64,000 nucleotides of DNA, taken from an uncultured Acidobacteriota bacterium. Its GTDB lineage: Bacteria; Acidobacteriota; UBA6911; RPQK01; JAPXNP01. Positions 17,226-64,000 of this stretch are shown piece by piece (positions within the stretch are counted from its first letter, which is position 1; the number at the start of each line of letters is the position of its first letter). The notes under the pieces are model-generated. The model made no database searches, was not told where the DNA came from, and saw only the letters and a list, made by a program, of their open reading frames with translations. The stretch lies in assembly GCA_963777605.1 (NCBI GenBank), contig CAVZRV010000008.1:256001-320000 (forward strand). The letters run 5' to 3'. Made by a program: the position numbers and the translations under genes.

Positions 17226-17298
17226 TCCTACCCCTCATGTCACATCTGCTGATACCGAAGGCACATTGCCGATTCATAATAAGTCCAGTTCAAAGCCC

Positions 17299-28313: not shown

Positions 28314-28326
28314 GAATGTGACCGCT

Positions 28327-39250: not shown

Positions 39251-40075
39251 ATGTCTCAGCCGTCGATTCCCCTTGACCTGTTTCCGTCTCCGACCGAAAA
39301 CAGCCTGCCGGTCGAGCAGAAAGCTGCCCCTAAGGCTGACCTCGACGCACTGCGCCTGCAGGTTGGTCGCTACGAATCGAGCGGTTTTTTGCCGACCGGT
39401 CTGGACGACCTGGATCGCCTGCTGAAGGGAGGGATTCCACGGGGAAAGTTGGTGGAAATCACAGGAAGCCTGTCCAGCGGCAAGACCAGCCTGCTCATGT
39501 CTATCCTGATGAAAGCGACCCGGGAAGAGGAGTTCGTTGCCTATGTTGACACCTTCAACAGCCTGGACCCGGACAGTGCGCTGAAAGCGGGGGTGAACCT
39601 GGCACGGTTGCTCTGGATCCGCTGCCGCAAGACTGATGAACCTCTGAACGCCGCCCTGAAAAAGGCTCTCAAGGCAGCCGACATTCTGGCCCAGGCGGGT
39701 GGTTTCGGGGTGATCGCCCTGGATCTTCAGCCTGCGGAGGAGCAGCGCAATTGCCGGGTTCCGCTGCAGTCCTGGTTTCGTCTGCAGCGGGCATTGAAGG
39801 GAACTCCCTCCACGATCCTGGTGATTGCCCCTTTTCGGACGGCCGGAAGCGCTGCATCACTGGCCCTTTCTCTCGAACGGCGGAACAGTCGCTGGTCCCA
39901 CCAGGGTTCTCGATCCGCCAGTGTCCGGTTTCGTGTAGAAGCATCCGAATTGACCGGTTCCGCGGCACAGGTTCCGTTTTCCACGACAGGCAATAGTCTT
40001 CAGGGTCTGGAAACCCAAGCCCAGCTTCTGAGAGGTATGCCCGGTGGCACGGTCCCGGTTTATTGCAGTTTTTAG
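39251..40075 (+). CDS. imuA: RecA-like ImuA-type protein
   Basis: PTGLDDLDRLLKGGIPRGKLVEITG..SSGKT, AYVDTFNSLDP, AGVNLARLLWIR, GGFGVIALD; first gene of the imu cassette. Confidence 0.8.
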   Translation: MSQPSIPLDLFPSPTENSLPVEQKAAPKADLDALRLQVGRYESSGFLPTGLDDLDRLLKGGIPRGKLVEITGSLSSGKTSLLMSILMKATREEEFVAYVDTFNSLDPDSALKAGVNLARLLWIRCRKTDEPLNAALKKALKAADILAQAGGFGVIALDLQPAEEQRNCRVPLQSWFRLQRALKGTPSTILVIAPFRTAGSAASLALSLERRNSRWSHQGSRSASVRFRVEASELTGSAAQVPFSTTGNSLQGLETQAQLLRGMPGGTVPVYCSF

Positions 40076-44300: not shown

Positions 44301-44640
44301 ACGGGAATCGTTGAAGCGCATGCGGGTGGTTCCTGCCGTCAACCTGAATTCCGTTCGGGACGGCCACCGGGTCCGGGTCGCGGGAACGGTGATTGTCCGG
44401 CAGCGGCCGATGACGGCGAAGGGATTTCTTTTCCTCAGCCTGGAAGATGAAACCGGAATCTCGAACATCATCGTTCGCCCGCAGATGTTCGATCGCGACC
44501 GTCTCGCCCTCATGAACTCGTCGTTCCTGGTCATCGACGGGGTCCTGCAGAAGCAGAGCGGCGTCCTCTCGGTCCGGGCCGAACGCATCCGGCCTCTGGA
44601 AGTCATTGAGACAGGCCCGGCATCGCACGACTTCCACTGA
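41296..44640 (+). CDS. dnaE2: Error-prone DNA polymerase DnaE2 (ImuC) with two compensating frameshifts (~41845, ~41960)
   Basis: PHP domain FIELHACSAFSFLEGAS, GRGSAANS, PDIDLD, PRHLGQHSGG, YGFPESHAASF, C-terminal SHDFH; segment 41846-41960 reads SLEEISGFTEGLVCLTAG in the alternative frame. Confidence 0.9.
41490..41527. repeat. REP-like hairpin (GCGGAAGC...GCTTCCGCACTCCAAA) inside the dnaE2 N-terminal extension
   Basis: gcggaagc (41492-41499) pairs with gcttccgc (41511-41518), followed by actccaaag. Confidence 0.55.
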
Positions 44641-46685: not shown

Positions 46686-46704
46686 AGATCTCCGGTAGAT
46701 AATC

Positions 46705-48804
46705 ATGAACAGTGACCTGATTTACCAGATGGAGGAACTTGCGCGCCTGGTTGGCCTGCAGACGGAGTACTACGATGGGCTTGGCCAGTTCCGCAAGCCG
46801 TCCACAGATTCTGTGTTTGCCGTCCTGAAGAGTCGCTGCACCGATCTCACGGACGTCAGTGATGTGCCTGGTTGCCTTTGGGAAACTCGCAGAGAACGCG
46901 CCTGCCGTCCCTTGGAACCGGTGTCGGTGGTCTGGGAAACCGGTCCGAAGGTATTCCGGCTGAACGTTCCAGCTCGAATCGAAAACTCCACGCTGGAGTT
47001 GTCGGTCCAATTCGAGTGCGGTGGCACGACTCGAATCTCACTGTGTCCGGCGGAGTTGAACGTGAGTGGCGGCTCCGAATGGGATGGGGAGCGTTTCCAG
47101 ATAAGAGAGCTTTCAATCCCCGACGACTGGCCCCTCGGCTATCACCGCCTGCGCCTGGAAGGGGCAGGTCTCGAGTCGGAGAGCATGCTGATCTCGGCGC
47201 CCGCGCGAGCCCACCAGCCGGTGCGCACGTCCACGTGGGGCGTTTTTCTGCCAGTCTATGCTCTCCACTCCGAGGAAAGTTGGGGAGCTGGAGATTTTAC
47301 TGACTTCGCAGCCTTCATGGAGTGGGTGTCCAGCCGGGGCGGGCGCCTGATCGGGACACTCCCCCTGCTCGCAACCTATCTCGATGAGCCCTGTGCCCCC
47401 AGTCCCTATTCTCCGATCAGCCGGAGATTCTGGAGCGAATTCTACGTTGATCCCCGACGTGCTCCGAACTGGGAATCGTGTGCCGCCGCAAGAGCACTTT
47501 TTGAGTCGCCCTCCTTTCAGTCCGAGATTGGCGAACTCCGGAGCAGTCCCCAGGTCGAGTATCGGGGTCAGATGAAGCTGAAGCGGAAGATCCTTACTGT
47601 CCTGGCCGAGCACTGCCGGAGCGGTGAGTCGGGTACCCGCCAGGAATTCGAGAGTTTTGTCAGCGCCCATCCCGGCATCGCGCGCTATGCCACTTTTCGA
47701 TCTGCCGTAGAACGGCTCGGAGCCAACTGGAGGGCTTGGCCGGAACCCCAGAGAAGCGGGCAACTCAACCTAAAGGATCGAGACGACGAGAGACTTTTTT
47801 ATCACCTTTATGCCCAATGGGTGACCCAGTTGCAGGCGGAGTCACTTCTTGCGGCCGCGCGCGCGAAGGATGTCGGCCTCTATCTCGACCTGCCCCTCGG
47901 AGTCCATCCCGACGGTTTCGATGCCTGGGACGAGAGGGAGAGCTTTGCCGAGGGAGTTTCGGGGGGATCTCCTCCGGACGGTTTCTTTACCGAGGGACAG
48001 GATTGGGGCTTCCAACCCATCCACCCCGAGAAGGAGCGGAAGAAAGGTTATCGCTATTTTCGATCCGTTCTGGGCCACATGATGAAGCACTGCGACATGC
48101 TCCGGATCGATCATGCCATGAGCCTGCAGCGTCTGTTCTGGGTTCCCCTTGGACACGAGGCGAGTGACGGTGTTTATGTCTACTATCCGTCGGACGAACT
48201 CTTTGCCGTCGTTGCCCTGGAGTCAACACGGCACAATTGCACGGTTGTCGGCGAGGACCTGGGCACGGTGACCCCCGAAGTCCGCGAGCAGATGCACGAG
48301 CACGGCATCCTCCGGATGTACGTGGGTCAGTTCGAGTTCAACACCGAACAAAATCCTCCTTTCAACGCACCGATTCCGGAAATGGTGGCGGGGTTAAACA
48401 CTCACGATACTGCAACGGCGGCCGGGTTTTGGCATGGGGACGACATTGAACTGCGTCACGAACTGGGCTTGCTGGAAGGGGAGGACCTGGAAAACGAACG
48501 CCGCGGGCGAGTCTACGTGAGGGAACGCATAATGGAGCATCTCGGCATCACCGGCGACCCGCTCTCGGAAGAGGTCCAGCAGGAGGTCCTGCGCCGCTGG
48601 TTGGCTTTCCTCGGAGAGAGTGAATCCGTTCACGTGCTGGTCACGCTAGAGGATCTTTGGGGAGAGCGCCGCCCGCAGAATGTTCCTGGAACTGTGGACG
48701 AAAAGCCCAACTGGCGGGGCAAAAGCCGTTACTCATTTGAAGATTTCAGCGCCGACGACAAGGTCCTGGAGCTCCTGTCCATGATCGCCCAGTTGCGCCG
48801 CTGA
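46705..48804 (+). CDS. malQ: 4-alpha-glucanotransferase (GH77)
   Basis: WGAGDFTD, SPYSPISR, LYLDLPLG, GSPPDGF, GQDWG, LRIDHA, GEDLG, NTHD, QNVPGT..NWR. Confidence 0.95.
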   Translation: MNSDLIYQMEELARLVGLQTEYYDGLGQFRKPSTDSVFAVLKSRCTDLTDVSDVPGCLWETRRERACRPLEPVSVVWETGPKVFRLNVPARIENSTLELSVQFECGGTTRISLCPAELNVSGGSEWDGERFQIRELSIPDDWPLGYHRLRLEGAGLESESMLISAPARAHQPVRTSTWGVFLPVYALHSEESWGAGDFTDFAAFMEWVSSRGGRLIGTLPLLATYLDEPCAPSPYSPISRRFWSEFYVDPRRAPNWESCAAARALFESPSFQSEIGELRSSPQVEYRGQMKLKRKILTVLAEHCRSGESGTRQEFESFVSAHPGIARYATFRSAVERLGANWRAWPEPQRSGQLNLKDRDDERLFYHLYAQWVTQLQAESLLAAARAKDVGLYLDLPLGVHPDGFDAWDERESFAEGVSGGSPPDGFFTEGQDWGFQPIHPEKERKKGYRYFRSVLGHMMKHCDMLRIDHAMSLQRLFWVPLGHEASDGVYVYYPSDELFAVVALESTRHNCTVVGEDLGTVTPEVREQMHEHGILRMYVGQFEFNTEQNPPFNAPIPEMVAGLNTHDTATAAGFWHGDDIELRHELGLLEGEDLENERRGRVYVRERIMEHLGITGDPLSEEVQQEVLRRWLAFLGESESVHVLVTLEDLWGERRPQNVPGTVDEKPNWRGKSRYSFEDFSADDKVLELLSMIAQLRR

Positions 48805-48908
48805 GAGTACGGCCGACTCCCCTGAAATGGCAAATCGAAAATCGTGATCCCGGATCCGATTTTGCTCTTAACTTGATGATAACAACAATAAATTCTATAA
48901 ATTAGAGT

Positions 48909-50861
48909 ATGGTTAAAGCCACAACAAAGAAGCGTACCCCCGGAGCGAGAAAGCCGAAGGCAGCCTTCTCGCTCCTTTCTGATCAAGATTGTTATTTGTT
49001 CAACGAGGGCTCCCACTACCGTTTGTGGGAGAAGCTCGGCTCCCACCTCGTCAAAGTGGGGCCGAAGTCCGGCGTGTACTTTGCCGTCTGGGCACCCGAA
49101 GCCTTGGAAGTCTCGGTAATTGGAGACTTCAACGGGTGGAATCCCGCCAGCAGTCCCCTGCAGCCCAAGGGGGGCACAGGAATCTGGGAAGGGTTCGTCG
49201 AGGGGATCGGGAAAGGCACCATCTACAAGTACCACATCCGATCGAAATTTAATGACCACCAGGTCCAGAAGGCTGACCCGTACGCCGTCCACGCGGAGGT
49301 CTCTCCCAAATCGGCATCGATTGTCTGGGATTTGGATTATGAGTGGAGCGACCAGGAGTGGATGGAATCGCGGGCAAAACGAAACGCCCTCGACGCCCCA
49401 ATGAGTATCTACGAGGTTCACATGGGCTCTTGGATGCATGCTCAAGAGGATGGCGATCGGCCACTGACCTACCGGGAGATCGCTCCCAGAATGGCCGAAT
49501 ACGTGAACCGGATGGGTTTCACGCACGTCGAGTTTCTGCCCATCATGGAGCATCCCTACGGAGCCTCCTGGGGATACCAGATTACCGGGTTCTTCGCTCC
49601 GACCAGTCGCTTCGGGACGCCACAGGACTTCATGTATCTGGTGGATTACCTTCACCAAAACGGCATCGGCGTCATCCTGGATTGGGTTCCGTCCCACTTC
49701 ACTACCGATGATCACGGACTGGGGTACTTCGACGGTACCTGCCTCTACGAGCACGCCGACCCGAGACAGGGCTACCACCCCGATTGGGGCAGCTACATAT
49801 TCAACTACGGGAGAAACGAGGTAAGGGCCTTTCTAATCAGCGCGGCCTGCTACTGGCTCGATCTCTACCACATCGACGGGTTGAGGGTAGACGCCGTCGC
49901 TTCTATGCTCTACCTCGACTACTCTCGAAAGGACGGGGAATGGATCCCGAACCGGTATGGAGGAAAGGAGAACGTCGATGCTATCTCCTTCTTGCGCCAG
50001 TTCAACAACGAAGTATACCGGGCCTTCCCCGATGTCCAAACGATCGCCGAGGAATCCACTTCCTGGGGCATGGTCTCAAGGCCGACCTACCTGGGTGGGC
50101 TCGGTTTCGGTATGAAGTGGGACATGGGTTGGATGCACGACACGCTGGAGTACATGTCCAAGGACTCCATTCATCGTCGATTTCATCACAACAACCTCAC
50201 GTTTCGCATGCTGTACGCATTTCACGAGAACTTCGTTTTGCCCCTGTCTCATGACGAGGTCGTCCATGGAAAGGGGTCACTGCTGGGTAAGATGCCGGGG
50301 GATGACTGGCAAAAGTTCGCCAATCTCAGGGTGCTGTTTGGGTATATGTACGCCCAGGCAGCCAAGAAACTGCTGTTCATGGGAGGGGAATTCGGACAGT
50401 GGAACGAGTGGTATCACGAGGTCAGTCTCGACTGGCATCTGACCGAGTTGCCTCTTCACTCCGGCCTCCAGAAATGGGTTGCTGACCTGAATCGCCTCTA
50501 CCGGGAACAGCCGGCCCTGCACGAACTCGACTTCGATCCTGCAGGCTTTGACTGGATCGATTGCGGCGACGTTGACCAGAGTGTGATCAGCCTCCTGAGG
50601 AAAGGGCGCAGGGAAGAGGACGTAGTTGCCGTCGTGTGCAACTTCACACCCATTGTTCGCCAGAACTACCGGGTCGGGGTCCCGACAGGGGGATTCTGGG
50701 AGGAAATGCTGAACAGCGATGCGCAGGACTATGGTGGCAGCGGCCAGGGAAACCTCGGCGGCGTGATTGCGGCCCCGGTTCCCTTCCATGGCCGGCCATA
50801 CTCGGTCAATCTCACCCTCCCCCCACTGGGAGTGGTCTTCCTGAAGAACCGCCAGCTATAG
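48909..50861 (+). CDS. glgB: 1,4-alpha-glucan branching enzyme (GH13)
   Basis: [48 protein letters not shown]. Confidence 0.97.
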
Positions 50862-51019
50862 AACATTTGTGATTTGTGGGGCGTGTTGCCCAAATCCTCT
50901 TCCCGAGATGTCAGGGTAACTTATGGGAATAGAGTAAAAGGAGGACAGATCGTGGCAGAATCTCCGTAGTCAAAGGTTCAAGTGCTAATGGAGAAATCAG
51001 TGGGATAGCGATTAAAATA

Positions 51020-52736
51020 TTAAAGAGCGTTCTGCTCTAGAGGTAAGAATGCCCCAAAAGCGCTGCCCAAGCCCGGTTCGCTTTCTACTGTGACGACGCC
51101 GCTGTGGGCGCGCACAATCCCCAGGACCACAGCCAGGCCCATACCGCGTCCGGTGAACTTGCTGGAGAAAAAAGGATCGAATAGCTTCTCCATATCCTTA
51201 TCCTCAATCCCGCAACCCGTATCAGTTACTTCCAGGCAGGCATAGGCATTGTCCTGCGGTTGCCAGTCCAAAGGGAAACGGTGTGCTGCCTTGATATCCC
51301 GGGCAAGAACCGATTTGACACTCAGGCGAATGGTACCCTCTCCCTCACCGATAGCCTCCCCGGCATTGGTGATCAGGTTGGTCAGGATCTGCGAAATCTG
51401 GTTCGTATTCGCCATGATAACCGGCCCTGGAACTGGAAGATCGGTTTCCAGCGTCACTTTTCCAGGCACAATGGCTTGAAGCATGGGCAGCGCCTTATGG
51501 CAGGCCCCTGAAAAATCCATGGGCTCATTTTTCCCGAATGATTGACCAAGGTAGGTCAACATCAGGCCGCTCATCTCGGCTGCCCTTTTGGAAGCATTCA
51601 AAGCCTCGGTGATATTAGTGTCAGGACTCGCCCCTTCGGAAAGCGCTATCATCGGACAGATCGAGATTCCCGATCACCGCCCCGAGTATGTTGTTGAAAT
51701 GATGCGCGATGGCCCCGGCCATGCGGCCCAGACTTTCAGCCTTCTGAAGCTGCCTGTTTTGAGCCTCCAGTTTTGCCTTTTCGGTTTCCGCCTGCTTGCG
51801 TTCGGAGATGTCCCGTTCGACATACAGAATGCTTTCAGGATTGCCGTTAGAATCAACCAAAATAGTGGAATTAACGTCGATATAAAACCGGCTTTTATCT
51901 TTTTTAACAGCCAGATATTCTGTCAGCCTATGATCCTTTTCACCGGCCAGAACTTTGCGAATATTGTCAATCAGTTTTTTGTGATTTGAAGGATCAATAA
52001 AACCTAAAACTGATTTTCCTAAATATTCATCTTTTTCCGCGGTAGAAAAACCATGCATTTTGACCAGTTTATCGGAAATCAGTTGTATCTTCCCATCTAA
52101 AGATAATATTCCTATTCCATCAGGTAAGAGTGATGTGATGGCTTCGATTTTTTGGTTGCTTTGCTGTAGGGCATCCCCGGTCTGCTTGCGCTCGGCAATC
52201 TCGCGCGTCAGTTCTTCATTTGTCTTTTGCAGATGGTCATTTGCCTCGGAAAGCTGCATCGTCCGTTCGGCTATCAGCTGTTCAAGAACCTGATTACGCT
52301 CCACTAACGCTTGCATTGGATAGACTTCGCCATCTTGAACCAGGTTGTAGGGAATGGAAATACTGCTGTGACAGATTTTCCAGCCTTCGGATTCTTTGCG
52401 GAAAATCAATACCAGTCGAGCTGTCTCTCGTGACAGGATATGCTCTTTGAAAGGTAGATGAATAGTAAAAAAACCGGTGGTAACGGCTATCGTATCACTC
52501 AGTGACTGGATGGCCACATCCTTGAGTTCGATACGGAGCGGATTTTTGACCTCGGTGAAGTCCTGGCGGGTAATCGCGACCCATTCTTCCCTGTCTTTAA
52601 CCAGAAAATCCCCACCTCCTGTAAAGCCGGAAAAGTCATCACTGAAACAGGTGGTGAGTTGATCGTCACGTGATGAATACATCCGCAGGTAGTCGTCAAA
52701 CAGTTGTCGTATTTCCTGATACTCGTTTACATCCAT
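51020..52736 (-). pseudogene. SnoaL/NTF2-PAS-HisKA-HATPase sensor histidine kinase, frameshifted at ~51653
   Basis: N-terminal SnoaL-like domain (FSGFTGGG, WKICHSSIS), PAS (RDISERK), H-box AHHFNNIL; HATPase (NLITNA, DTGCG, FDPFF, GRGMGL) continues in another frame after LDLS[g]MIAL. Confidence 0.8.
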
Positions 52737-52898
52737 TGATTAAGGGGCCTTTTCATCTGTCCTTCGTTTTAGTGAATGCGGGCAACCCTTTTATTACTAG
52801 ATAACTTCAATGCACTTTATCAAGAGACAGGGCAATGTCATCCTCCTGTTTCCCCCTTCTACGACTTCTGCATGAGACAAGAATATATCCCTGCCAGT

Positions 52899-53190
52899 CA
52901 CACTTGTCCAAATTAGGAATTCAGGATTGAGGGGCTGAGCCCGGCCTCGTACGATTGGGTTTGTCCAAAAGCCTGATCGAAGAGGAGGACCCAGCCCATG
53001 AACCGATTTTGCAGCATCTTCAGTCAACTTCTCCAGCTTTTTCCGCGCCTCGAGTGCCAGGAGCTGGTCCGCGAGACGAAAGCCGAGCATCACACCCGAG
53101 GATTTGCCAGCTGGACGCAGTTCGTCGCCATGCTGTTCTGCCAACCGGGCCGCGCCCACAGGTTGAGAGAAATCTGTGGAGGTCTGGACA
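52899..53190 (+). mobile_element. IS4-family transposase N-terminal fragment (DUF4372 type) with putative left end
   Basis: 52998: MNRFCSIFSQLLQLFPR...RGFASWTQFVAMLFCQ...LREICGGL, then similarity is lost; cacacttgtccaaattag is a candidate terminal repeat; AGGAGG RBS. Confidence 0.8.
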
Positions 53191-53280
53191 TGAACAACGC
53201 CAAAATCAAAATGTTACATGGGTGCCCTTTGATTCTTCCGCTTGTCTCCGGACACTGTGAGTGGCATCATTTCTTCCCTT

Positions 53281-54792
53281 ATGGCTCGAGTCTTAGATCA
53301 GTTCGTATGCATTCACGGCCACTTCTATCAGCCGCCTCGGGAGAATCCCTGGACCGGAAAGATCGATCGCCAGCCCACTGCCGAGCCGTTCCATGACTGG
53401 AACGAACGGGTTTGTGCCGAATGCTACGAGCCCAATACCCGGTCCGTCATTCTCGGCCCCAATGGTAAAGCCGAACAGGTTGTCAACAACTACGCCCACA
53501 TGAGTTTTAACTTCGGGCCGACGCTGTTGAGGTGGCTTCAGGAGGGATCGCCGGATACCTACAAAAAGATCCTCCGTGCCGACCGACTCAGCAGGAAACG
53601 TTTCGGTGGTCATGGTGCAGCGATCGCCCAGGCCTATCACCACAGCATCCTTCCCCTTGCCAATCGGCGGGACAAGGTGACCGAGGTGCATTGGGGAATT
53701 CGGGACTTCGAAGCCCGGTTCCGGCGCAAGCCTGAAGGAATGTGGCTTCCGGAAACCGCGGCCAACCTGGAGACGCTTGAAATCCTGGCAGACGAGGGGT
53801 TCAGCTTCACGATTCTGAGCCCTTACCAGGCTGCCCGAGTTCGCAAACCCGGAAGTACCTCCTGGGTCGAAATAGCGAGAGGAACGGTGGACTCTCGCCG
53901 CCCTTACCTGGTGCAGTTGCCGTCCGGAAAGAGCCTCTTCGTCTTCTTCTACAACGGCGAAATTGCTCGTGGGGTGGCCTTCCAGGGCCTGCTCTCCAAC
54001 GGTGCGGGCTTCGCGAGTCGCTTCGGCGAATCCCTGGACGAGACCTACTCTCCCCAGTTGGCCCACATTGCCACCGACGGCGAGAGCTACGGACACCATC
54101 ACAAGTTCGGGGACATGGCTCTGGCCTACGCGCTTCGGGCCATCGAAGCCAGTCCCTCCCTCTCGTTGACGGTCTACGGCGAGTTCCTGGAGAAGGTGCC
54201 GAACCCCTGGCAGGCGGAGATTCTCGAAAATTCATCGTGGAGTTGCGCCCATGGTGTTGAACGCTGGCGAAGCGATTGCGGCTGCCAGACCGGGGCTCCG
54301 GAGGGCTGGAATCAGAAGTGGAGAACACCCTTGCGGGAAGGGCTCAACTCGCTCAGGGATGCGGCCGCGGCCCTTTTTGAGTTGGAGGGAAGAAAATGGC
54401 TCAAGGATCCTTGGGCAGCTCGGGACGACTACATCGAGGTCCTGCTCAGCTCGTCCGCTGCTGTCCGGCGGCGTTTTCTCTCGAAGTGGGCAAGAAAGTC
54501 AAGGCTCACGGCGGATGAGAAGATGCAGATTTTCGGCCTGCTCGAGAGCCAGCGCTATGCGCTGATGATGTTCACCAGCTGCGGGTGGTTTTTCAACGAC
54601 ATCTCGGGGATTGAGACGATCCAGATTCTGAGTTACGCGGCGCGGCTGATCGAGCTCTGTCGCGAACTCTTCGACATCGACCTGGAGCCGGGATTCCTGG
54701 AGCGTCTAGACGAGGCCAAGAGCAACGACCCGGACCAGGGCACGGGCCGGAAAATATACCAACATCTGCGATCTACGATTTGCAATTCCTGA
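53281..54792 (+). CDS. GH57 family / DUF3536 glycoside hydrolase
   Basis: CIHGHFYQPPRENPW, SFNFGPTLL, GMWLPETA, ATDGESYGHH, WSCAHGVERW, MFTSCGWFF. Confidence 0.93.
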   Translation: MARVLDQFVCIHGHFYQPPRENPWTGKIDRQPTAEPFHDWNERVCAECYEPNTRSVILGPNGKAEQVVNNYAHMSFNFGPTLLRWLQEGSPDTYKKILRADRLSRKRFGGHGAAIAQAYHHSILPLANRRDKVTEVHWGIRDFEARFRRKPEGMWLPETAANLETLEILADEGFSFTILSPYQAARVRKPGSTSWVEIARGTVDSRRPYLVQLPSGKSLFVFFYNGEIARGVAFQGLLSNGAGFASRFGESLDETYSPQLAHIATDGESYGHHHKFGDMALAYALRAIEASPSLSLTVYGEFLEKVPNPWQAEILENSSWSCAHGVERWRSDCGCQTGAPEGWNQKWRTPLREGLNSLRDAAAALFELEGRKWLKDPWAARDDYIEVLLSSSAAVRRRFLSKWARKSRLTADEKMQIFGLLESQRYALMMFTSCGWFFNDISGIETIQILSYAARLIELCRELFDIDLEPGFLERLDEAKSNDPDQGTGRKIYQHLRSTICNS

Positions 54793-56274: not shown

Positions 56275-56291
56275 AACGCCCCTTGCAGTGG

Positions 56292-56328
56292 TTCCGGAGA
56301 AACCGGTTTTGTGCCGGTTTCTCCGGAA
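56292..56328. terminator. Perfect 15-bp stem hairpin after trpB2 (terminator or REP-like)
   Basis: ttccggagaaaccgg-ttttgtg-ccggtttctccggaa. Confidence 0.55.
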
Positions 56329-56348
56329 AAACCCCGAAAGCAGGTGAG

Positions 56349-57854
56349 ATGTTCCGAATCTGTCCGCTGCTTCTGTTTCTGCTGGCGGGGTGTGCTGGTC
56401 CGAGTCCGGAGCAGGCGCGGTCTGTGCGCAACGTCCTCTTCATAATGGGGGACGACCACTCGGCCGAGGCCCTGGGTTGCTACGAAAACCCGATCGCTCG
56501 GACCCCGAACCTGGATCGGCTCGCCTTCGAAGGCGTTCGCTTTGACCGTGCCTATGCAAATGCGCCGGTCTGTACTCCCTCTCGACAGTCGATCATCACC
56601 GGAAAACTTCCCCATGCCGTCGGTGTAACCCTGCTCGCCACTCCGCTTTCCGAGTCGGAAACCACCATCGGCGACTACCTGGGTTCACTCGGGTTTGCTA
56701 CTGGGGCGATCGGCAAGATGCACTTCAACAGTGACCTGAAGCATGGCTTCGATTACCGGGTGGACACCGCCGAACACAGGGCCTTCCTCAAGGAACATCC
56801 ACCGCGCCCAATTTCCCCCGACCTGCCGGTGCGTCCTCCCTGGAAACCGTTTCAGGATCCGGCTCGAATCTGGCTGAATGCCGAGGGACTCCCCGGCGGC
56901 CTGTACGACGCCGATTCCGAAGGCACGTTCTTCACGAACAAGGCGATCCAATTCCTGGAAGACCACCGCCGCCAGCGTTTCTGCCTCTGGCTCAGCTACC
57001 ACGAGCCCCACTCTCCGTTCAATTTTCCGGTCGAGTTTGCTGGGCGCTTTGATCCCGCGGAGATGCCGCTTCCGGCCGTCGGACCCGATGACGATCGGTG
57101 GGTCCCCAGGGTTTTTCGGGACTTGACCGAAGAGGAAAGACGGGGGATTGTGGCGTCCTACTACACCTCGGTGGAATACCTCGACCGCAACGTGGGGCGC
57201 GTTCTCGACGCTCTTGACCAATTGGACCTGTCCGATGAGACGCTGGTGATCTACGTGGGAGATCAGGGGTACCTGTTGGGTCACCACGGACGATTCGAGA
57301 AACACACCATGTGGGAACCTGCTGTCCGGGCTCCACTGTTGATGAAAGCCCCCGGTCTTGCGGCCCGGTGGGAGCCGGCCCTCGTCGAGTTCATCGACCT
57401 GTTTCCCACGATCCTCGATTACCTCGATGTTGAACAGCTGGCCGGCTTGCAGGGCAAGAGCCTGAAGCCGTTGCTCGACGAAACGGTCGAAAGCCACCGT
57501 GACTCCGTTTTCAGCGAGTTCCTGGCCGACAACACTGCCATGATCCGGACCGCCGAATGGAAGTATATCTTCGCCACCGGGCAGGCCGATCTTGCCATGG
57601 GGTACGAAACCGGCTTTCCACCACCGGGCCCGATTCACCGGCTCTATGACGTCCGCAGTGACCGGGAGGAGTTTCACAATCTGGCCTCCGAGCCGGCAAT
57701 GGCTGACGATGTAGAACGTCTTCAGGGCCTGATGCTGGATCGGTTCAAAAAAACCGACCCGAGAGCTTCCCTGCTGCCTGACGGCCTCTCGGTCGTGGAA
57801 CAGCTCAGCTGGTTCTGCCAACCCCCGGAATCGACATCTACGATTTCTGATTGA
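56349..57854 (+). CDS. Formylglycine-dependent sulfatase (S1), probable lipoprotein
   Basis: NVLFIMGDD, TPNLDRLA, CTPSR signature, GKMH, PH.P, GDQG, lipobox LAGC. Confidence 0.93.
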   Translation: MFRICPLLLFLLAGCAGPSPEQARSVRNVLFIMGDDHSAEALGCYENPIARTPNLDRLAFEGVRFDRAYANAPVCTPSRQSIITGKLPHAVGVTLLATPLSESETTIGDYLGSLGFATGAIGKMHFNSDLKHGFDYRVDTAEHRAFLKEHPPRPISPDLPVRPPWKPFQDPARIWLNAEGLPGGLYDADSEGTFFTNKAIQFLEDHRRQRFCLWLSYHEPHSPFNFPVEFAGRFDPAEMPLPAVGPDDDRWVPRVFRDLTEEERRGIVASYYTSVEYLDRNVGRVLDALDQLDLSDETLVIYVGDQGYLLGHHGRFEKHTMWEPAVRAPLLMKAPGLAARWEPALVEFIDLFPTILDYLDVEQLAGLQGKSLKPLLDETVESHRDSVFSEFLADNTAMIRTAEWKYIFATGQADLAMGYETGFPPPGPIHRLYDVRSDREEFHNLASEPAMADDVERLQGLMLDRFKKTDPRASLLPDGLSVVEQLSWFCQPPESTSTISD

Positions 57855-57984: not shown

Positions 57985-58758
57985 ATGAAGTCATCGCTGG
58001 CTGAAATTGCGGATCGACGGGAGCGACTGGCGACGTTGCTGCGCAAGGAGGGATACTTGTCGGTCAACGCCCTTTCATCCCGCTTTGGGATTTCCGAGGC
58101 GACCGTCCGCCGCGACCTGAGCGCGCTGGAAAAGGAAAACCGGATCACTCGCACTTACGGCGGAGCACTGTCGGAGTTCGACGCCCTTTTCGTTCCCTTT
58201 TACCAGCGGAACACGCAGAACCGGGACGCCAAGACCCGCATTGCCCGGGCCGTCCTGCCTCTGCTCGAGGACAAACAGACTCTCTTTCTGGACGCTGGCT
58301 CAACGGTCTTCGCAGTCGCGGAAGCTGTCGCATCGAGCCGGTTCGATGTAACGGTCGTTACCAACAGCCTCCCCGTTGCGGAAACGCTGGCGGCAGCCAA
58401 TTCTCTGAACGCTCACCTCCTTGGGGGTTGCCTGCTTCCCCATCAACTGGTTGTTGTCGGTCCAGGCACCAGCCTCAGCCTGACGGCCTGGCAATTCGAC
58501 CTGGCCCTCCTCAGCGCTGAAGGGGTCAGTGCCCAGGGACTCTGGAACTCCGAAAGCGAGATCACCGATTTTCAGCGACACGTCTGTGGCCGTAGTTCCT
58601 CGACGGTCTTCTGTGTCGATTCCAGCAAGATCGGTCGATTGGCCGCCAGTTTTCTGTTGCCTTGGAGCCAGGTGGAGAGGGTGGTCTCGGATGCTACCGG
58701 GGAACAGGTGGCCGACCTGGGTGACGATGCTTCAAACGTAAAGTGGATTGCGGCGTGA
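57985..58758 (+). CDS. DeoR/GlpR-family transcriptional regulator heading the BMC locus
   Basis: SEATVRRDL HTH, RTYGGA, FLDAGST, VTNSL, DSSKIG. Confidence 0.93.
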   Translation: MKSSLAEIADRRERLATLLRKEGYLSVNALSSRFGISEATVRRDLSALEKENRITRTYGGALSEFDALFVPFYQRNTQNRDAKTRIARAVLPLLEDKQTLFLDAGSTVFAVAEAVASSRFDVTVVTNSLPVAETLAAANSLNAHLLGGCLLPHQLVVVGPGTSLSLTAWQFDLALLSAEGVSAQGLWNSESEITDFQRHVCGRSSSTVFCVDSSKIGRLAASFLLPWSQVERVVSDATGEQVADLGDDASNVKWIAA

Positions 58759-58785
58759 GCCGCTTTATTGAATCGGAGTGGAGAC

Positions 58786-59112
58786 ATGGAACTGGCGAGA
58801 GTTGACGGCTCGGTTGTCGCGACCATGAAGGTCGAGCGACTGGTGGGTCACAAGTTGCTCCTGGTAACCCTCGTCCGCGCCGACATGACGGCGACCGACA
58901 CGCACGTGGTGGCGATTGACACGGTCGGATCGGGAGTCGGGGAAATCGTGCTGGTGGTTCGAGGCAGTTCGGCGCGACAGACGGACAAAACGTCAACGGT
59001 CCCGACCGATGCCACCATCGTGGCGATCGTGGATGCGGTCGTGTATCACGGGAAAAGTGTCTACGAGAAAACATCGCACGCGGAACCGAGCCATGTTTCT
59101 AGGAAGAATTGA
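58786..59112 (+). CDS. BMC-P pentamer (EutN/CcmL family) 1
   Basis: MELARVDGSVVATMK...LLLV...VAIDTVGSGVGEIVLVVRGSSAR...PTDATIVAIVD. Confidence 0.95.
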   Translation: MELARVDGSVVATMKVERLVGHKLLLVTLVRADMTATDTHVVAIDTVGSGVGEIVLVVRGSSARQTDKTSTVPTDATIVAIVDAVVYHGKSVYEKTSHAEPSHVSRKN

Positions 59113-59374
59113 CGGAAAGATTTGGGCGACGGCCAAAGATGAACGCCTCAAGGCTGTCCGTTTCTGCCTGATGCAGCAGGTGGACGAACATGAGCAGCCG
59201 GTCGGAGACGTTATGGTCGCGGTCGATTCGATTGGAGTCTCGGAAGGTGACCTGGTCTTTTGGGTCAACAGTACTGAGGCCGGTTTTGTCCGGCCGGACC
59301 GGGGGCTTCCGACCGAAGTCAGTATCGTCGGGCTGGTAGACCGGGTCGACCTGGATGCCCGGTCCGAGGAGTAA
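59093..59374 (+). CDS. BMC-P pentamer (EutN/CcmL family) 2
   Basis: MFLGRIDGKIWATAK...VAVDSIGVSEGDLV...LPTEVSIVGLVD. Confidence 0.92.
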   Translation: MFLGRIDGKIWATAKDERLKAVRFCLMQQVDEHEQPVGDVMVAVDSIGVSEGDLVFWVNSTEAGFVRPDRGLPTEVSIVGLVDRVDLDARSEE

Positions 59375-59380
59375 GCGGTC

Positions 59381-59650
59381 ATGTTTCTCGGTCGAGTCGT
59401 CGGAAGCATCGTCTCCAGCGCCAAGCACCCCAGCTACGCAAGGCAGAAGCTGATGATCGTTCGCCTGACCACTCCTGAGGGCGAACTCACCCGCCGGATG
59501 ATGGTGGCCGTGGACGCCGTCGGATCGGGCTCGGGGGACTGGGTCCTGATCTCCTCCGACGGACAGGGTGTGGCCGACATCCTCGGCTCCGACACTCTGC
59601 TTCCCATCCGGGAGATCATCGTTGGAATTGTGGATCGCGTGAACGTATGA
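59381..59650 (+). CDS. BMC-P pentamer (EutN/CcmL family) 3
   Basis: MFLGRVVGSIVSSAKH...VAVDAVGSGSGDWVL...IIVGIVD. Confidence 0.92.
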   Translation: MFLGRVVGSIVSSAKHPSYARQKLMIVRLTTPEGELTRRMMVAVDAVGSGSGDWVLISSDGQGVADILGSDTLLPIREIIVGIVDRVNV

Positions 59651-60414
59651 CACGAAAAGAGATGCAAGCACTGGTGGAAGCAGTAACCCGAGAGGTTCTC
59701 GCTGCCCTTGCGAAGGAGTCCTCCGGACCCGCTAGCGGTTCGGCGTGCGCGTGCAAAGGCGGCTGCGGATGTTCGAACGATTCGTCGTCCGGGGTGATAT
59801 CGACGCCTTCCGGGGAAGACTCGTCAGATCGGGTGCGGTTTGATGGCCGACTGCTGACTGAGGACACGCTTCGCAGGCTCCCCCTGAACGGACAGGCGGA
59901 AATCGTTCTCGGTCCCGGGGTCATCGTGACGCCGCTGGCCAGGGACCGCGCCGCCTTCGTCGGAGTCAACCTCGTGTCCTCCACCGGGCAACCGGGCCGA
60001 AGGCACTGTCCTCCCCGGCAAACAGAACCTTTCCTGGAGCAGGTCGCCTACTTTACGGCCCGGCCGGTACTGACGGTGGAGCGAATCCTGCGGAGTGAGA
60101 TCGAAGCGGTGGGTGCATCAATCGCTGTCTGCCCGGTCACCGGGAAAGTCGAAGAAGAGCTGGAGGGAGCGCTTTCATGCGCGGCCCGGGTGTCCGAGGG
60201 GTCGATTCAACGTGCTGTCGTACTCGCTGAAGATGTCTACCTGGTACAGCGTCACGCCAACCGACTGCCTGGAGTAAGAGCCCGGGTCTGCTCAGATGCT
60301 CGAAGTGCCCTGGAGAGCCGCCGCTGCGACGATTCCAACGTCCTGCTTTTGAGCGGGCGCCTCCTCGGCCAGACCATGATTCGAAGGATTGTGCAGGCCT
60401 GGTTGAGCGAGTAG
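59647..60414 (+). CDS. BMC-associated protein: encapsulation peptide, linker domain and degenerate RpiB/LacAB-like domain
   Basis: EMQALVEAVTREVLAAL amphipathic helix; LLTED...VIVTPLARD domain; C-terminal ANRLPGVRA.VC...SRR.DDSNVLLLSGR. Confidence 0.75.
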   Translation: MTRKEMQALVEAVTREVLAALAKESSGPASGSACACKGGCGCSNDSSSGVISTPSGEDSSDRVRFDGRLLTEDTLRRLPLNGQAEIVLGPGVIVTPLARDRAAFVGVNLVSSTGQPGRRHCPPRQTEPFLEQVAYFTARPVLTVERILRSEIEAVGASIAVCPVTGKVEEELEGALSCAARVSEGSIQRAVVLAEDVYLVQRHANRLPGVRARVCSDARSALESRRCDDSNVLLLSGRLLGQTMIRRIVQAWLSE

Positions 60415-60427
60415 GAGAACGATCGAA

Positions 60428-61744
60428 ATGAGTCTGAGTGAACAGGTTCGCGAAGCCGGTGTAGTCGGAGCAGGAGGTGCAGGCTTTCCGACGCACGTCA
60501 AGATGGCGGCAAAAGCCGAGTGGTTGCTCGCCAACGGGGCCGAGTGCGAGCCGCTGCTTCACAAGGATCGTGAGTTGATGATTCACTTCGCCCCAGAGGT
60601 GATGAAGGGAATTGATCTGGCCGCAACGTCAACCGGGGCGTCAAAGCGTGCCATCGGAGTGAAGGCCAAGAATCCCGCGGCGATCGAGGCCCTGCGCAAG
60701 GTTAACGATGGCTCCCGCGCCGACCTGGTCGAATTTGGCGACTTCTACCCGTCCGGTGATGAGTACGAGGTCGTCCACACCATCACGGGGCGGCTGATTC
60801 CACCCCAGGGGATCCCTCTCGACGTCGGAGTCGTGGTCAGCAATGTTGAAACGCTCTTCCAGGTTCTCCAGGCTACGCGGGGAAATCCCGTGACCCGGAA
60901 ATTGCTGACGGTCACCGGCTTGGTCCGCGAGCCTGCCACGCTCTGGGTCCCGATCGGGATGTCGTTCCGTGACCTGCTCGCTCTAACCGGCGGTCCCGCT
61001 GTCAGCGAATTTGCCGTTATGGAAAGCGGGCTTCTGATGGGGAAACTGGTGCAGGATCTGGACTCTCCGGTAACGAAGAAGACCGGAGGCCTGATCGTCC
61101 TTCCCCGAAACCACGCCCTGATACGACGGTACGAGACTCCTCCTGCCGCCCAGGCTCGCATCGGTAAGTCCGCCTGTGACCAGTGCAGTTACTGCACCGA
61201 ACTCTGCCCCCGTTACCTGTTGGGATATGACGTTCGCCCGCACGCCGTCATGCGCAGCCTAGGCTTCACGGCATCCGGTTCGGAAATGTGGAACGAGTAC
61301 GCGAAGCTTTGTTGTGGATGTGGCATCTGTACCCTTTACGCCTGCCCGGAGGGCCTGTTCCCTCGCGAAGCCTGTCTCACCGGGATCGCCGATCTGCGGG
61401 GCCAGGGAAAAGGTCGATGGGAAGGATCGCGCGAGGTCAAGGTTCATCCCATGAAGGAGTATCGCAGGGTCCCGATGAAGCTGCTTGTCCAAAAACTGGG
61501 AATCGAGAACTACGAGGCCGAGGCACCTTATAGAGACGCGAACCCGACTCCGGCGGTCGTGCGCATCCCCTTGAAACAGCACGCCGGTGAAGCCGCCCTT
61601 CCAGTTGTTTCGGTCGGTGACCGGGTGACTCCCGGCCAATTGATCGGCGAGATCCCGGACGGCAAGCTGGGGGCCCGCGTCCATGCCAGCATTCCGGGCC
61701 GGGTGACCAGGATCAACGGAATTGTGGAAATCGAAAGGAACTGA
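60428..61744 (+). CDS. pduS: PduS-like (RnfC/SLBB, 4Fe-4S) flavoprotein oxidoreductase
   Basis: AGVVGAGGAGFPTHVK, NGAECEPLL, YPSGDE, CDQCSYCTELCP, CCGCGICTLYACP, LKQHAG, VHASIPG. Confidence 0.9.
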   Translation: MSLSEQVREAGVVGAGGAGFPTHVKMAAKAEWLLANGAECEPLLHKDRELMIHFAPEVMKGIDLAATSTGASKRAIGVKAKNPAAIEALRKVNDGSRADLVEFGDFYPSGDEYEVVHTITGRLIPPQGIPLDVGVVVSNVETLFQVLQATRGNPVTRKLLTVTGLVREPATLWVPIGMSFRDLLALTGGPAVSEFAVMESGLLMGKLVQDLDSPVTKKTGGLIVLPRNHALIRRYETPPAAQARIGKSACDQCSYCTELCPRYLLGYDVRPHAVMRSLGFTASGSEMWNEYAKLCCGCGICTLYACPEGLFPREACLTGIADLRGQGKGRWEGSREVKVHPMKEYRRVPMKLLVQKLGIENYEAEAPYRDANPTPAVVRIPLKQHAGEAALPVVSVGDRVTPGQLIGEIPDGKLGARVHASIPGRVTRINGIVEIERN

Positions 61745-61750
61745 CCGGAC

Positions 61751-62299
61751 ATGATGAATGCCGTCGGGCTCATCGAACTGAGTAGTATCGCCGCCGGCTT
61801 CGAGGTTGCCGACACCATGTTGAAGGCGGCTGAAGTCGAACTGATCGTGTCTCGGACTATCTGTGCAGGGAAGTTCATGGTCATCATCGGCGGAGAGGTC
61901 GCTTCGGTTCAGGCCGCCGTAGAGGCCGGCGCCGAGGCCTGGGAAGGTGCCGTCATCGACACCATGGTGATCCCCAATGTCCACCCCGCCGTTTTCCCGG
62001 CTATCGCAGGTACAAGGGAGGTCCAGACAAGAGGTGCACTCGGGATCCTGGAGGCCTTCTCAGTGGCTTCGCTGATCGAGGGAGCCGATGAAGCCGTCAA
62101 GTCGGCGGACGTGGAATTGATTGAAATCCGCCTCGCCATGGCACTGGGCGGAAAAGCTTTTGTCACGATGACCGGGGAAGTTTCGGCCGTCCGGGCCGCC
62201 GTCGATGCGGGTGCCGCACGGATCGGGGAGAAGGGGCTGCTCGTGAATATGGCGGTGATCCCGTCTCCTAGTCCGGAACTCTACCGGGAGCATATCTAG
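61751..62299 (+). CDS. pduT: PduT-like tandem-domain shell protein (BMC-T)
   Basis: GLIELSSIAAG..VAD.MLK, TICAGKF (Fe-S Cys kept), ALGILEAFS, RLAMALGGK. Confidence 0.9.
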   Translation: MMNAVGLIELSSIAAGFEVADTMLKAAEVELIVSRTICAGKFMVIIGGEVASVQAAVEAGAEAWEGAVIDTMVIPNVHPAVFPAIAGTREVQTRGALGILEAFSVASLIEGADEAVKSADVELIEIRLAMALGGKAFVTMTGEVSAVRAAVDAGAARIGEKGLLVNMAVIPSPSPELYREHI

Positions 62300-62315
62300 A
62301 GATCGAGGAAGAGGA

Positions 62316-63011
62316 ATGAACCGGACGAGCACTTCCTGCAGAGAATGTGGCCTTTGTGAAGTCCCGCGGGCCGAAGACCTGACTGCCCTGGTCGAATCGG
62401 TGGTCCGAGAGGTCATCGACTCGATGGGTGCCGTTCGGAGCCGAACCATTCCGGTCGGCGTCTCCGCCCGCCACATGCACATCACTCAGGAGCATTTCGA
62501 AATTCTTTTTGGCTCGGGCAAGACGCTCACCAAGCTTCGGGACCTGAACCAGCCGGGGGAATTTGCGGCCAATGAGACCGTTATGGTGGTAGGGCCCAAG
62601 CGACGCAGCATGGAGGTCCGCATTCTCGGGCCCACGCGGAAGCGCACCCAGATCGAACTGGCTTATTCGGACGGCATCTACCTGGGCGTGGACTTGCCTC
62701 ACCGCCTGTCCGGGGACATCGCGGGAACGGCGCCGCTCGTCCTGGTCGGTCCCGCCGGCGTGGTTGATCTGGAGGAAGGCGCGATCCGTGCAAAACGGCA
62801 CATCCACATCAATCCTCAAGAAGCACGTCGCCTCGGAGTCAGGAACGGACAGATCGTTTCGGTTCGAACTACGGGCGAAATGAGTGTCACCTTCAACAAC
62901 GTGGTCATTCGAGAGGGTGAAGGCCTCAATCTCGAAATACACCTCGACACCGACGAGGCTAACGCTGCCGGGATACGCTGCGGCGACCCGGTGGAGCTGA
63001 TCGTGGATTGA
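62316..63011 (+). CDS. pduL: Phosphate acyltransferase PduL with N-terminal encapsulation peptide
   Basis: PVGVSARHMH, DLNQPGEFAA, RILGPTR, RLSGD, KRHIH, HLDTDEANA. Confidence 0.95.
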   Translation: MNRTSTSCRECGLCEVPRAEDLTALVESVVREVIDSMGAVRSRTIPVGVSARHMHITQEHFEILFGSGKTLTKLRDLNQPGEFAANETVMVVGPKRRSMEVRILGPTRKRTQIELAYSDGIYLGVDLPHRLSGDIAGTAPLVLVGPAGVVDLEEGAIRAKRHIHINPQEARRLGVRNGQIVSVRTTGEMSVTFNNVVIREGEGLNLEIHLDTDEANAAGIRCGDPVELIVD

Positions 63012-63027
63012 GGGGGGAGTCGAACCG

Positions 63028-64000
63028 ATGGCTGATATCGACAAGGAACTGGTCAAAACCATTGCGAACCGCGTGATTGCCGAACTTGGGCGCAGCGGCG
63101 CCACCGATCCGCCGCCTGCTTCGGGTTCCGGCGACGGAATCTTCGATCGAGCTGCGGACGCGATTCAGGCAGCCGTGGTCGCCCAGCAGGTCTGGGCGCG
63201 AACCCCAATGGCGGCCCGGGATAGAGTGATCTCCCGGCTTCGCGCCGCGATGCACGAGCACGCCGACGAGTTCTCGCGCATGGCCCAGCAGGAAACCGGC
63301 ATGGGCCGTGTTGCCGACAAGATCCTCAAACATCACAACGCCGCCGCCGCCACCCCGGGGATCGAAGATCTGACCTCCCGGTCTTTTTCGGGCGACCAGG
63401 GGCTGGTCGTGGAAGAGTACGCCCCGTACGGGGTCGTGGCGGCCGTGACCCCGTCAACGCACCCCATTCCGGTGTTGCTCAACAGCATTATTATCATCAC
63501 GGCTCCGGGAAACGCGGCCGTCTTCAGCGTTCACCCGGCCGCCAGCCAGGTCTCAGCGCACGCTATGGCGATCTTCAACCGGGCCATTCGCGAGGCCGGT
63601 GGACCGCCAAACCTGGTTTCAATGATTCGGAAACCGACGATGGAGGCGGTCGATGAGTTGTTCCGGCACCCGGATGTCGCCTTGATCGCGGCAACGGGAG
63701 GGCCGGCCCTTGTTGCGGCAGCCTTCCGCTCAGGGAAGAAGGTTATTGCCGCCGGGCCCGGCAATCCGCCCGTCCTGGTAGACGAAACCGCTTCACTCTC
63801 CGCCGCTGCCCGGGAAATCATCCTCGGGGCCGGCTTCGACAACAACATCCTCTGCATCGCCGAGAAAGAGATCTTCGTGGTTGGTTCCGCCTTTGACGGC
63901 TTTGCCGCGGCGATGGAGCAGGCCGGTGCGGTTCGCCTGAACCGGCTCCAGATCCAGGCTCTGACCGAACGGGCCTTCATTTCTGAAGGACACGGCAAGT
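63028..64000 (+). CDS. CoA-acylating aldehyde dehydrogenase (PduP/EutE family), truncated by window end; absent from the ORF track
   Basis: Manual translation: MADIDKELVKTIANRVIAELG (encapsulation peptide), ETGMGRVADK, TPGIEDL, PYGVV...TPSTHP, ATGGP, AGPGNPPVLVDETA, FDNNILCIAEK. Confidence 0.93.
   Translation, partial: MADIDKELVKTIANRVIAELGRSGATDPPPASGSGDGIFDRAADAIQAAVVAQQVWARTPMAARDRVISRLRAAMHEHADEFSRMAQQETGMGRVADKILKHHNAAAATPGIEDLTSRSFSGDQGLVVEEYAPYGVVAAVTPSTHPIPVLLNSIIIITAPGNAAVFSVHPAASQVSAHAMAIFNRAIREAGGPPNLVSMIRKPTMEAVDELFRHPDVALIAATGGPALVAAAFRSGKKVIAAGPGNPPVLVDETASLSAAAREIILGAGFDNNILCIAEKEIFVVGSAFDGFAAAMEQAGAVRLNRLQIQALTERAFISEGHGK

Follow-up and report, generated by a model that had tools for sequence, protein, structure and literature searches.

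Gene content and layout of the operon

The 64,000-nucleotide (nt) stretch considered here, referred to as the window, comes from an uncultured Acidobacteriota bacterium (G000:C8:256001-320000) and ends inside an operon encoding a bacterial microcompartment (BMC). The operon consists of 12 genes in the order DeoR-P-P-P-RpiB-PduS-T-PduL-AldDH-H-aldolase-Ack, where P, T and H denote BMC-P, BMC-T and BMC-H shell proteins, AldDH an aldehyde dehydrogenase and Ack an acetate/propionate kinase. The window covers the first three-quarters of these genes, and the remainder was recovered by fetching the next 13 kilobases (kb), giving an extended stretch (L002) in which each coordinate equals the window coordinate minus 56999 (Table 1).

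Genes were called from the open reading frame (ORF) listing combined with Pfam searches of both the window and L002, and NCBIfam equivalog cut-offs were used for specificity. The in-window Pfam matches reach E-values of 1e-12 to 4e-70, so chance is no issue. For the first BMC-P gene, the PF03319 match begins at residue 7 of a longer ORF with a TTG start, and the ATG at 58786 was therefore taken as the start codon. From DeoR through AldDH, neighbouring genes are spaced by -20 to +27 nt, including a 20-nt overlap of the first two BMC-P genes, and the downstream gaps amount to 176 nt (AldDH to BMC-H), 15 nt (BMC-H to aldolase) and 105 nt (aldolase to kinase). The kinase is followed by a glycogen-phosphorylase-like gene in convergent orientation and then by an HrpB helicase gene, so the operon ends at the kinase and is complete in L002. 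A scan for regulatory sites was uninformative, with no promoter-like sites in the operon (1.8 expected) and eight terminator-like sites (8.7 expected). The three BMC-P proteins share 32-36% pairwise identity (32% for the second and first, 33% for the second and third, and 36% for the third and first). The DeoR-family protein scores below the cut-off of every NCBIfam equivalog, and it is found at the same position in same-family loci with 59-69% identity.

Table 1 Features of the microcompartment operon and of its surroundings. Positions refer to the window unless marked L002.
Feature	Position	Strand	Evidence and remarks
DeoR-family transcriptional regulator	57985-58758	+	PF00455 3.4e-37, PF08220 8.7e-18; first gene of cluster
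BMC-P 1, 108 aa	58786-59112	+	PF03319 6.3e-27; short C-terminal tail
BMC-P 2, 93 aa	59093-59374	+	PF03319 5.3e-21
BMC-P 3, 89 aa	59381-59650	+	PF03319 6.6e-22
RpiB-like protein, 255 aa	59647-60414	+	PF02502 1.3e-12, residues 175-254 only
PduS-like flavin/Fe-S NADH dehydrogenase (MNdh)	60428-61744	+	PF01512 6.4e-42, Fer4_17 4e-15, RnfC_N 1.9e-14, SLBB 7e-7
PduT-like tandem-domain shell trimer (BMC-T^SE)	61751-62299	+	PF00936 5.8e-48, two stretches
PduL-type phosphotransacylase	62316-63011	+	PF06130 4.2e-70; NF011652 239 bits (cut-off 209)
CoA-acylating AldDH, 475 aa	63028 to L002 7456 (window-equivalent 64455)	+	Crosses window end at 64000; PF00171 6e-30 (in-window part), 6e-37 (full); NF011927 565 bits (cut-off 403)
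BMC-H, 100 aa	L002 7633-7935		Past window; PF00936 6.8e-30
Class II aldolase, 272 aa	L002 7951-8769		Past window; PF00596 1.8e-52
Acetate/propionate kinase	L002 8875-10105 (window-equivalent 65874-67104)		Frameshifted; PF00871 7.1e-95
Glycogen-phosphorylase-like gene	L002 10090-12186		Convergent with operon
Sulfatase	56283-57854	+	Stops 130 nt 5' of DeoR
GH95 alpha-L-fucosidase	27907-30810		27 kb 5' of operon
Enolase-superfamily protein (550 aa) and sodium:solute symporter	15555-18951		MR_MLE_C
RecA-like (ImuA-like) ORF	39251-40075
DnaE2-like error-prone polymerase	41209-44640		PHP-domain ORF ends 41895; domain resumes near 42043
Alpha-glucan genes	44706-54792		GlgE-like maltosyltransferase, MalQ, branching enzyme, GH57/DUF3536 protein

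The initial annotation, made on the window, had named nine genes on the plus strand, all of which were confirmed by the ORF listing and Pfam. It had further placed a BMC-H gene and the aldehyde-generating enzyme beyond position 64000 and proposed retrieving the DNA there. Both genes were found in the retrieved DNA, the BMC-H gene followed by the class II aldolase, along with the rest of the AldDH gene and the acetate kinase. Its description of a locus with no signature enzyme visible is accurate within the window, but reflects an edge effect, as the aldolase lies just past the window end.

Searching the whole genome (assembly 96.7% complete) returned three matches to PF00936 and three to PF03319, all at this operon, which is the sole BMC locus found, although a satellite locus could lie in the missing part of the assembly. 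The genome-wide shell inventory thus comprises one BMC-H, one BMC-T and three BMC-P genes, in agreement with the shell definition of the PVM type.

Signature aldolase and proposed pathway

According to the available part of Axen 2014, a class II aldolase as signature enzyme defines the PVM type. In the present operon, this enzyme (PF00596) is accompanied by AldDH, PduL, an acetate kinase (frameshifted in the assembly), a DeoR regulator and a BMC-P triplet. Residues 8-204 of the aldolase align with solved L-fuculose-phosphate aldolases (E 1.7e-27), and the PSSE, HAH and NHG motifs are kept. At its C-terminus, the aldolase carries an amphipathic ...ALVEAVTAAVMRQIGK tail typical of an encapsulation peptide (EP), and the tail pattern is common to all 20 of the clade and planctomycete aldolases compared. 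The operon very likely encodes a catabolic BMC of the PVM family with the class II aldolase as its signature enzyme, i.e., a fuculose/rhamnulose-phosphate metabolosome.

The genome holds further genes related to fucose. A three-domain L-fucose isomerase (639 aa) adjoins an FGGY kinase (490 aa) on another contig (C29), and a GH95 alpha-L-fucosidase is encoded within the window. In related loci, genes of this kind are found at the operon itself, as an FGGY kinase lies between DeoR and the BMC-P triplet in two KSB1 loci and fucI directly follows ack in one further, unclassified locus. Upstream of DeoR and on the same strand lies a sulfatase gene, which is not adjacent in the one relative checked (L016). 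The sulfatase and the fucosidase would both be in keeping with growth on sulfated fucans.

In the proposed pathway, L-fucose, and perhaps L-rhamnose, would be converted outside the shell to the ketose-1-phosphate by the fucose isomerase and the FGGY kinase, whose genes lie away from the operon. Once in the shell, the ketose-1-phosphate (L-fuculose-1-phosphate) would be cleaved by the FucA-like aldolase into dihydroxyacetone phosphate (DHAP) and L-lactaldehyde, after which the acylating AldDH would turn lactaldehyde, CoA and NAD+ into lactoyl-CoA and NADH. PduL would regenerate CoA and form lactoyl-phosphate, from which the acetate/propionate-family kinase would yield lactate and ATP. As there is no alcohol dehydrogenase in the locus, NAD+ is unlikely to be recycled by such an enzyme and would instead be regenerated by MNdh, with the electrons passing via a 4Fe-4S cluster in the BMC-T^SE pore to an external acceptor. 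The shell would be built from one BMC-H, one BMC-T and the BMC-P triplet, and the operon would be regulated by DeoR.

Electron-transfer module

The PduS-like protein has a Complex1_51K FMN/NADH domain and two cysteine clusters, at residue 250 (CxxCxxCxxxC) and at residue 295. As described in the available text of Sutter 2024 (PNAS), PduS and PduT have been renamed MNdh and BMC-T^SE and form an NAD+-recycling module, which occurs in 2,172 loci, is encoded by adjacent genes in 97% of them, and is found in 361 loci without an alcohol dehydrogenase. The same arrangement is seen here: the BMC-T^SE gene begins 6 nt past the MNdh stop, the pore carries a cysteine (Cys38), AldDH is encoded in the locus, and an alcohol dehydrogenase is lacking as in the 361 published loci. 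The pore motif differs, reading C-A-G-K here in place of the published CP(G/S)K, and binding of a cluster is a prediction. The initial annotation had linked the PduS/PduT pair chiefly with propanediol utilization (PDU) and glycyl-radical (GRM) microcompartments, but a reading of the pair as their hallmark is not supported, given the spread of this general module over many BMC types. In PVM loci, 18 of the 20 reported occurrences of the module are in satellite loci, as given in the same text.

A degenerate RpiB-like subunit

The fifth gene encodes a protein that resembles the sugar-phosphate isomerase RpiB in its C-terminal part only. An AlphaFold model (predicted local distance difference test score, pLDDT, 85) shows a helix (residues 3-25), a disordered cysteine-rich linker (28-46), a beta-alpha-beta-alpha-beta domain (62-111) and an RpiB fold (132-254), for which the best Foldseek matches are RpiB structures (1nn4 and 2vvr; E about 1e-9, ~126 residues aligned). 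Aligned with solved RpiB sequences, the active-site motif ICGTG has become LAEDV and SREHND has become SRRCDD. In the alignments to 3he8 and 2vvr, the catalytic Cys66 is replaced by Ala and His99 by Cys (E. coli numbering). NCBIfam scores lie far under the cut-offs (46 against 135, and 38 bits against 139 for rpiB). Having lost both the catalytic cysteine and the catalytic histidine, the protein is a probable pseudoenzyme. In three homologues of the clade, the position of Cys66 is held by Asp.

The protein is comparable to the RPI of sugar phosphate utilization (SPU) loci. In the available part of the 2024 Commun Biol paper, the SPU RPI is described as an EP-bearing, nearly inactive protein without Cys66 (Asp is found there in all SPU RPIs) that binds the signature aldolase, and a role in packaging has been proposed. 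RPI is also said there to occur in SPU loci only. This statement is too narrow, as a profile of eight clade sequences detects homologues in 18 planctomycete loci (E 3.6e-15 to 5.6e-5), located between a BMC-P gene and the aldolase wherever these flanks fall in the locus. When PF02502 was run on six of these homologues, five scored over the cut-off of 24.7 bits (25-33.5) and the sixth reached 22.4. The idea that the gene was borrowed from SPU loci is thus not borne out. By analogy with the SPU protein, the RpiB-like protein is most likely a non-catalytic subunit that organizes cargo. Co-folding of the aldolase with the RpiB-like protein scored 0.02 against a mark of 0.32, and as it was run without controls, this speaks neither for nor against binding. 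A direct search of genome contigs with the protein gave 599 pattern matches, of which none was confirmed.

The domain between the linker and the RpiB fold is a conserved mini-domain of ~50 aa with a T-P-x3-D motif. Across 18 aligned sequences, four positions are invariant, three of them within the mini-domain (T95, P96 and D100) and one within the RpiB domain (N231), and residues 58-118 folded alone reach a pLDDT of 82. Foldseek of the mini-domain against the PDB gave no match at E <= 0.001, and four weaker signals are leads only. These are a wide VIA-align search whose top Z was 5.9 (Cas1 N-terminal domain), in the common range for this tool; a profile search of PDB sequences that returned just the peripheral-subunit-binding domain of PDH-E2 (E 0.26); a protein atlas in which the best values (0.83) fall to unnamed clusters and a PduM-like family (PF15953) ranks 27th (0.77); and a weak PF15953 match in one planctomycete homologue (E 0.014). 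Matches to the mini-domain (~45 aa in this case) also occur at the C-terminal ends of a PduL fusion (L056 10839-11996, domain E 1.7e-4) and of a 218-aa protein (L064 13401-14057, domain E 3.8e-4), each in a Bacillota BMC locus. This distribution of matches suggests that it may be a mobile module of BMC accessory proteins.

Encapsulation peptides and cysteine motifs

One EP pattern, L-V-x2-[IV]-T-x2-V-[LIM], recurs in four proteins of the operon, at the C-terminus of the aldolase and at the N-termini of AldDH, PduL and the RpiB-like protein. In three of these putative cargo proteins, cysteine clusters lie beside the EP, namely CxCx4CxC in the RpiB-like protein, CxxC...C in the aldolase and CxxCxxC (SCRECGLCE) in PduL, where the motif is at the very N-terminus and the EP follows. 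The PduL motif is confined to the acidobacterial family, and all 19 aldolase sequences compared, those of planctomycetes among them, have Cys220. It could be speculated, although the proposal is rather doubtful as a whole, that the EP-bearing RpiB-like pseudoenzyme is a cargo-nucleating subunit shared by SPU loci, the 'SPU-like' locus discussed below, the present clade and planctomycete PVM loci, with the T-P-x3-D mini-domain as its working part and the cysteine clusters cross-linking in a metal- or redox-dependent manner and so condensing the core.

Distribution and phylogeny

An aldolase-anchored scan of public genomes was carried out, in which the best 80 of 397 relatives were kept and 13 query pieces were mapped by tblastn. 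The same 12-gene order was found in three of the 80 loci, all from Acidobacteriota (L016, L017 and L018; the contig of L017 ends in ack), and in three further same-family genomes (L110-L112), giving six same-family genomes in total. One KSB1 metagenome-assembled genome (MAG; L026) has the same order with three inserted genes (FGGY kinase, CrcB and DUF190). In this MAG, the CrcB fluoride channel and DUF190 genes (L026 6597-7318) lie between BMC-T and PduL, and the operon is otherwise collinear. Among the other kept loci were 15 planctomycete PVM loci (PduL-H-H-Ack-P-AldDH-P-...-aldolase), about 10 ACI-like acidobacterial loci (aldolase-H-P-P-P) and eight Bacillota loci (aldolase-AldDH-H...-PduL-P). 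The particular feature of the present operon is its gene order, which is conserved in a small clade.

Within the taxonomic family of the window, an RpiB-like relative is present in eight of 15 genomes, six at full length and two cut by contig ends. Three of these ORFs are letter-identical to those of L016-L018, and each was counted once. AldDH matches at E <= 1e-60 occur in 29 of 301 evenly sampled genomes from the phylum; two of the 29 belong to the same family and show 73-74% identity, and the rest show 40-49%. Both the family and the phylum tallies include one unpublished genome (G018), on which none of the individual claims depends.

The initial annotation had also called for an AldDH tree. 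A quick IQ-TREE analysis of 35 rows, from which ORFs under 380 aa and matches above 1e-30 were dropped and which leaves out the AldDHs of SPU, ACI-satellite and Latescibacteria loci, places the present architecture in one clade (eight rows, support 100). This clade and 15 planctomycete PVM rows share one side of a 99-supported split from the Bacillota PVM-like and other rows. The clade thus groups with the planctomycete PVM AldDHs, yet falls outside their clade.

Comparison with known microcompartments

The closest published gene set is that of a Latescibacteria locus called 'SPU-like', with the order PduL-H-H-P-PduS-T-P-RpiB-P-Ack-aldolase-H-AldDH, in the available part of Axen, Erbilgin & Kerfeld 2014 (section 29, Dataset S2). 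Compared by the published gene lists, it shares with the present operon the AldDH, PduL, a PduS/RnfC-like protein with an adjoining 183-aa tandem BMC protein, an RpiB-like protein of ~230-240 aa, three BMC-P, the class II aldolase, Ack and BMC-H. It differs in gene order, in having three BMC-H rather than one, in its phylum, and in listing no adjacent DeoR. In the accessible part of Youssef 2015, the Latescibacteria BMC was read as a fucose/rhamnose organelle. The suggestion in the initial annotation of a hybrid and possibly uncharacterized subtype therefore does not hold, since the same set of enzyme and shell genes was already described in 2014, whereas its reading of the locus as a metabolosome for sugar-derived aldehydes, and the likeness it noted to the PVM type, are supported.

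In the nomenclature of Sutter 2021 (Supplementary Data 6), the PVM components are PvmB (PduL), PvmD/E (BMC-H), PvmG (kinase), PvmH/K/M (BMC-P), PvmJ (AldDH), PvmL (flavoprotein), PvmN (aldolase) and PvmO (Ldh-like). Searches for a catalogue label of the present architecture returned none. In addition to the components named above, the present operon and the PVM loci share an RpiB-like homologue 5' of the aldolase, following a BMC-P gene where one falls in the locus. It differs from them in carrying MNdh and BMC-T^SE in the main locus, in having one BMC-H instead of two, in its order relative to the 15 planctomycete loci, and in protein identities of only 39-54% to these loci. The ACI type (Sutter 2021) shares with it the phylum, a class II aldolase bearing an EP at its C-terminus, the BMC-P triplet and one or more BMC-H, and the aldolases of these loci are 49-57% identical to the present one. 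However, ACI loci read aldolase-H-P-P-P, have AldDH on a satellite locus and carry a 2-hydroxyacid dehydrogenase, whereas the main locus here includes AldDH, PduL and Ack, and the operon lacks any PF00389/PF02826 gene. With SPU loci, as portrayed in the available part of the Commun Biol paper, the operon shares the BMC-P triplet, PduS, PduL and an RPI with an N-terminal EP, a linker, an RpiB fold and a lost Cys66. Yet the signature here is a class II aldolase rather than DeoC/DERA, with no PF01791 gene in the operon. In addition, His99 is kept in SPU RPIs and lost here, and the 'linker' here holds the confidently folded mini-domain.

Alternative explanations

Several points weigh against a PVM-family fuculose/rhamnulose-phosphate metabolosome. 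The aldolase stays under every NCBIfam equivalog cut-off (e.g., 127 against 264 for the FucA model NF005302), so we infer its substrate, and no RhaA-family member turned up in the 96.7% complete genome. PvmO (Ldh-like, PF02866) and PvmL (PF02441) are absent from the 12 genes of the operon and from the flanking ORFs that were scanned, the part of the genome to which this search was confined. The phyla known to host PVM loci are Planctomycetes and Verrucomicrobia, and the present locus belongs to neither, its nearest loci being acidobacterial. In the BMC-T pore, the proline of the published motif is replaced (C-A-G-K at Cys38), and the relatives read C-[A/S/P]-G-K. The kinase gene is split by a one-base frameshift near L002 9008-9009, leaving the N-terminal 42 aa and the other 372 aa in different frames, and if the frameshift is real, the last step would need another kinase.

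The same organelle could act on another ketose-1-phosphate, either L-rhamnulose-1-phosphate only or the 5-deoxy- or 5-methylthio-ribulose-1-phosphate of the S-adenosylmethionine-salvage 'DHAP shunt', and release an aldehyde other than lactaldehyde, e.g., acetaldehyde. The missed equivalog cut-offs leave room for this, as several class II aldolase, epimerase and decarboxylase models score similarly and class II aldolases are called promiscuous in the available part of Axen 2014. It is nevertheless unlikely given that related MAGs (KSB1 and unclassified) have fucI or FGGY-kinase genes in or beside the locus, that the genome has a fucI-kinase pair and a GH95 fucosidase, and that the best solved matches of the aldolase are fuculose-phosphate aldolases. 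An SPU organelle for deoxyribose-5-phosphate, with a DeoC-type signature aldolase encoded elsewhere, is extremely improbable. The EP-bearing RpiB-like protein, PduS, PduL, AldDH and the BMC-P triplet are typical of SPU loci, and the genome has four DeoC-family matches. However, all four are on other contigs, none near shell genes, and none has an N-terminal EP-like extension (the canonical DeoC has 228 aa), whereas the operon itself encodes a class II aldolase that carries its EP at the C-terminus, and the AldDH groups with PVM AldDHs among the sampled loci, in the tree built without SPU AldDHs.

The interrupted kinase also raises the prospect of a decaying, non-functional locus in this strain, in which a real frameshift would mark the loss of the pathway. 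The break appears to come from a single surplus C in a GGCC context, and both parts are in one frame in five relatives. The window also contains a second interrupted gene, a DnaE2-like error-prone polymerase 3' of a RecA-like (ImuA-like) ORF, where two in-frame stops separate the end of the PHP-domain ORF from the point at which the domain resumes. Either this gene too is broken, or the assembly contains a further indel within the 64 kb. Consensus indel errors could also account for two interruptions over this length of a 53-contig assembly, and the other eleven operon genes are intact with key residues kept. Matches were found in four DNA sequencing runs at small shares (0.04-0.09), with no RNA run among those listed, and the frameshift site is spanned by none of their contigs. 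A single metagenome contig of 151 nt (about 98% alike) ends loosely in nine letters immediately ahead of L002 9009, which fits the form with one C fewer, and hence the open frame, although this is weak evidence from one contig at depth 2. Taken together, decay of the locus is highly unlikely, and a fuculose/rhamnulose-phosphate metabolosome of the PVM family is the preferred interpretation of the operon.

Neighbouring genes

Some features lie further from the operon. An enolase-superfamily protein is encoded beside a sodium:solute symporter, and this pair may represent a dehydratase route for sugar acids (fuconate/rhamnonate-type) running alongside the BMC pathway. The window also contains a set of alpha-glucan genes (Table 1). 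A glycogen-phosphorylase-like gene is found 3' of the operon in the relative L018 as well.

Implications

The main value of the analysis is one of clarification, as the 'missing' signature enzyme and hexamer lie past the edge of the window and the locus falls within described BMC biology. What is new is modest, namely that a degenerate RpiB-like subunit occurs both here and in planctomycete PVM loci and that cysteine motifs adjoin three EPs. A literature search found no paper on RpiB in PVM loci or on this BMC in Acidobacteriota, within the parts of the papers available. The RpiB-like subunit and the EP-adjacent cysteine motifs could guide work on the assembly of cargo cores. The operon would also be a clear-cut case from nature of a PVM-type core relying only on electron export by MNdh and BMC-T^SE, without an alcohol-forming side reaction. 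Finally, an acidobacterial family would be added to the hosts of the PVM-family fucose/rhamnose organelle, in a form distinct from the ACI type within the same phylum.

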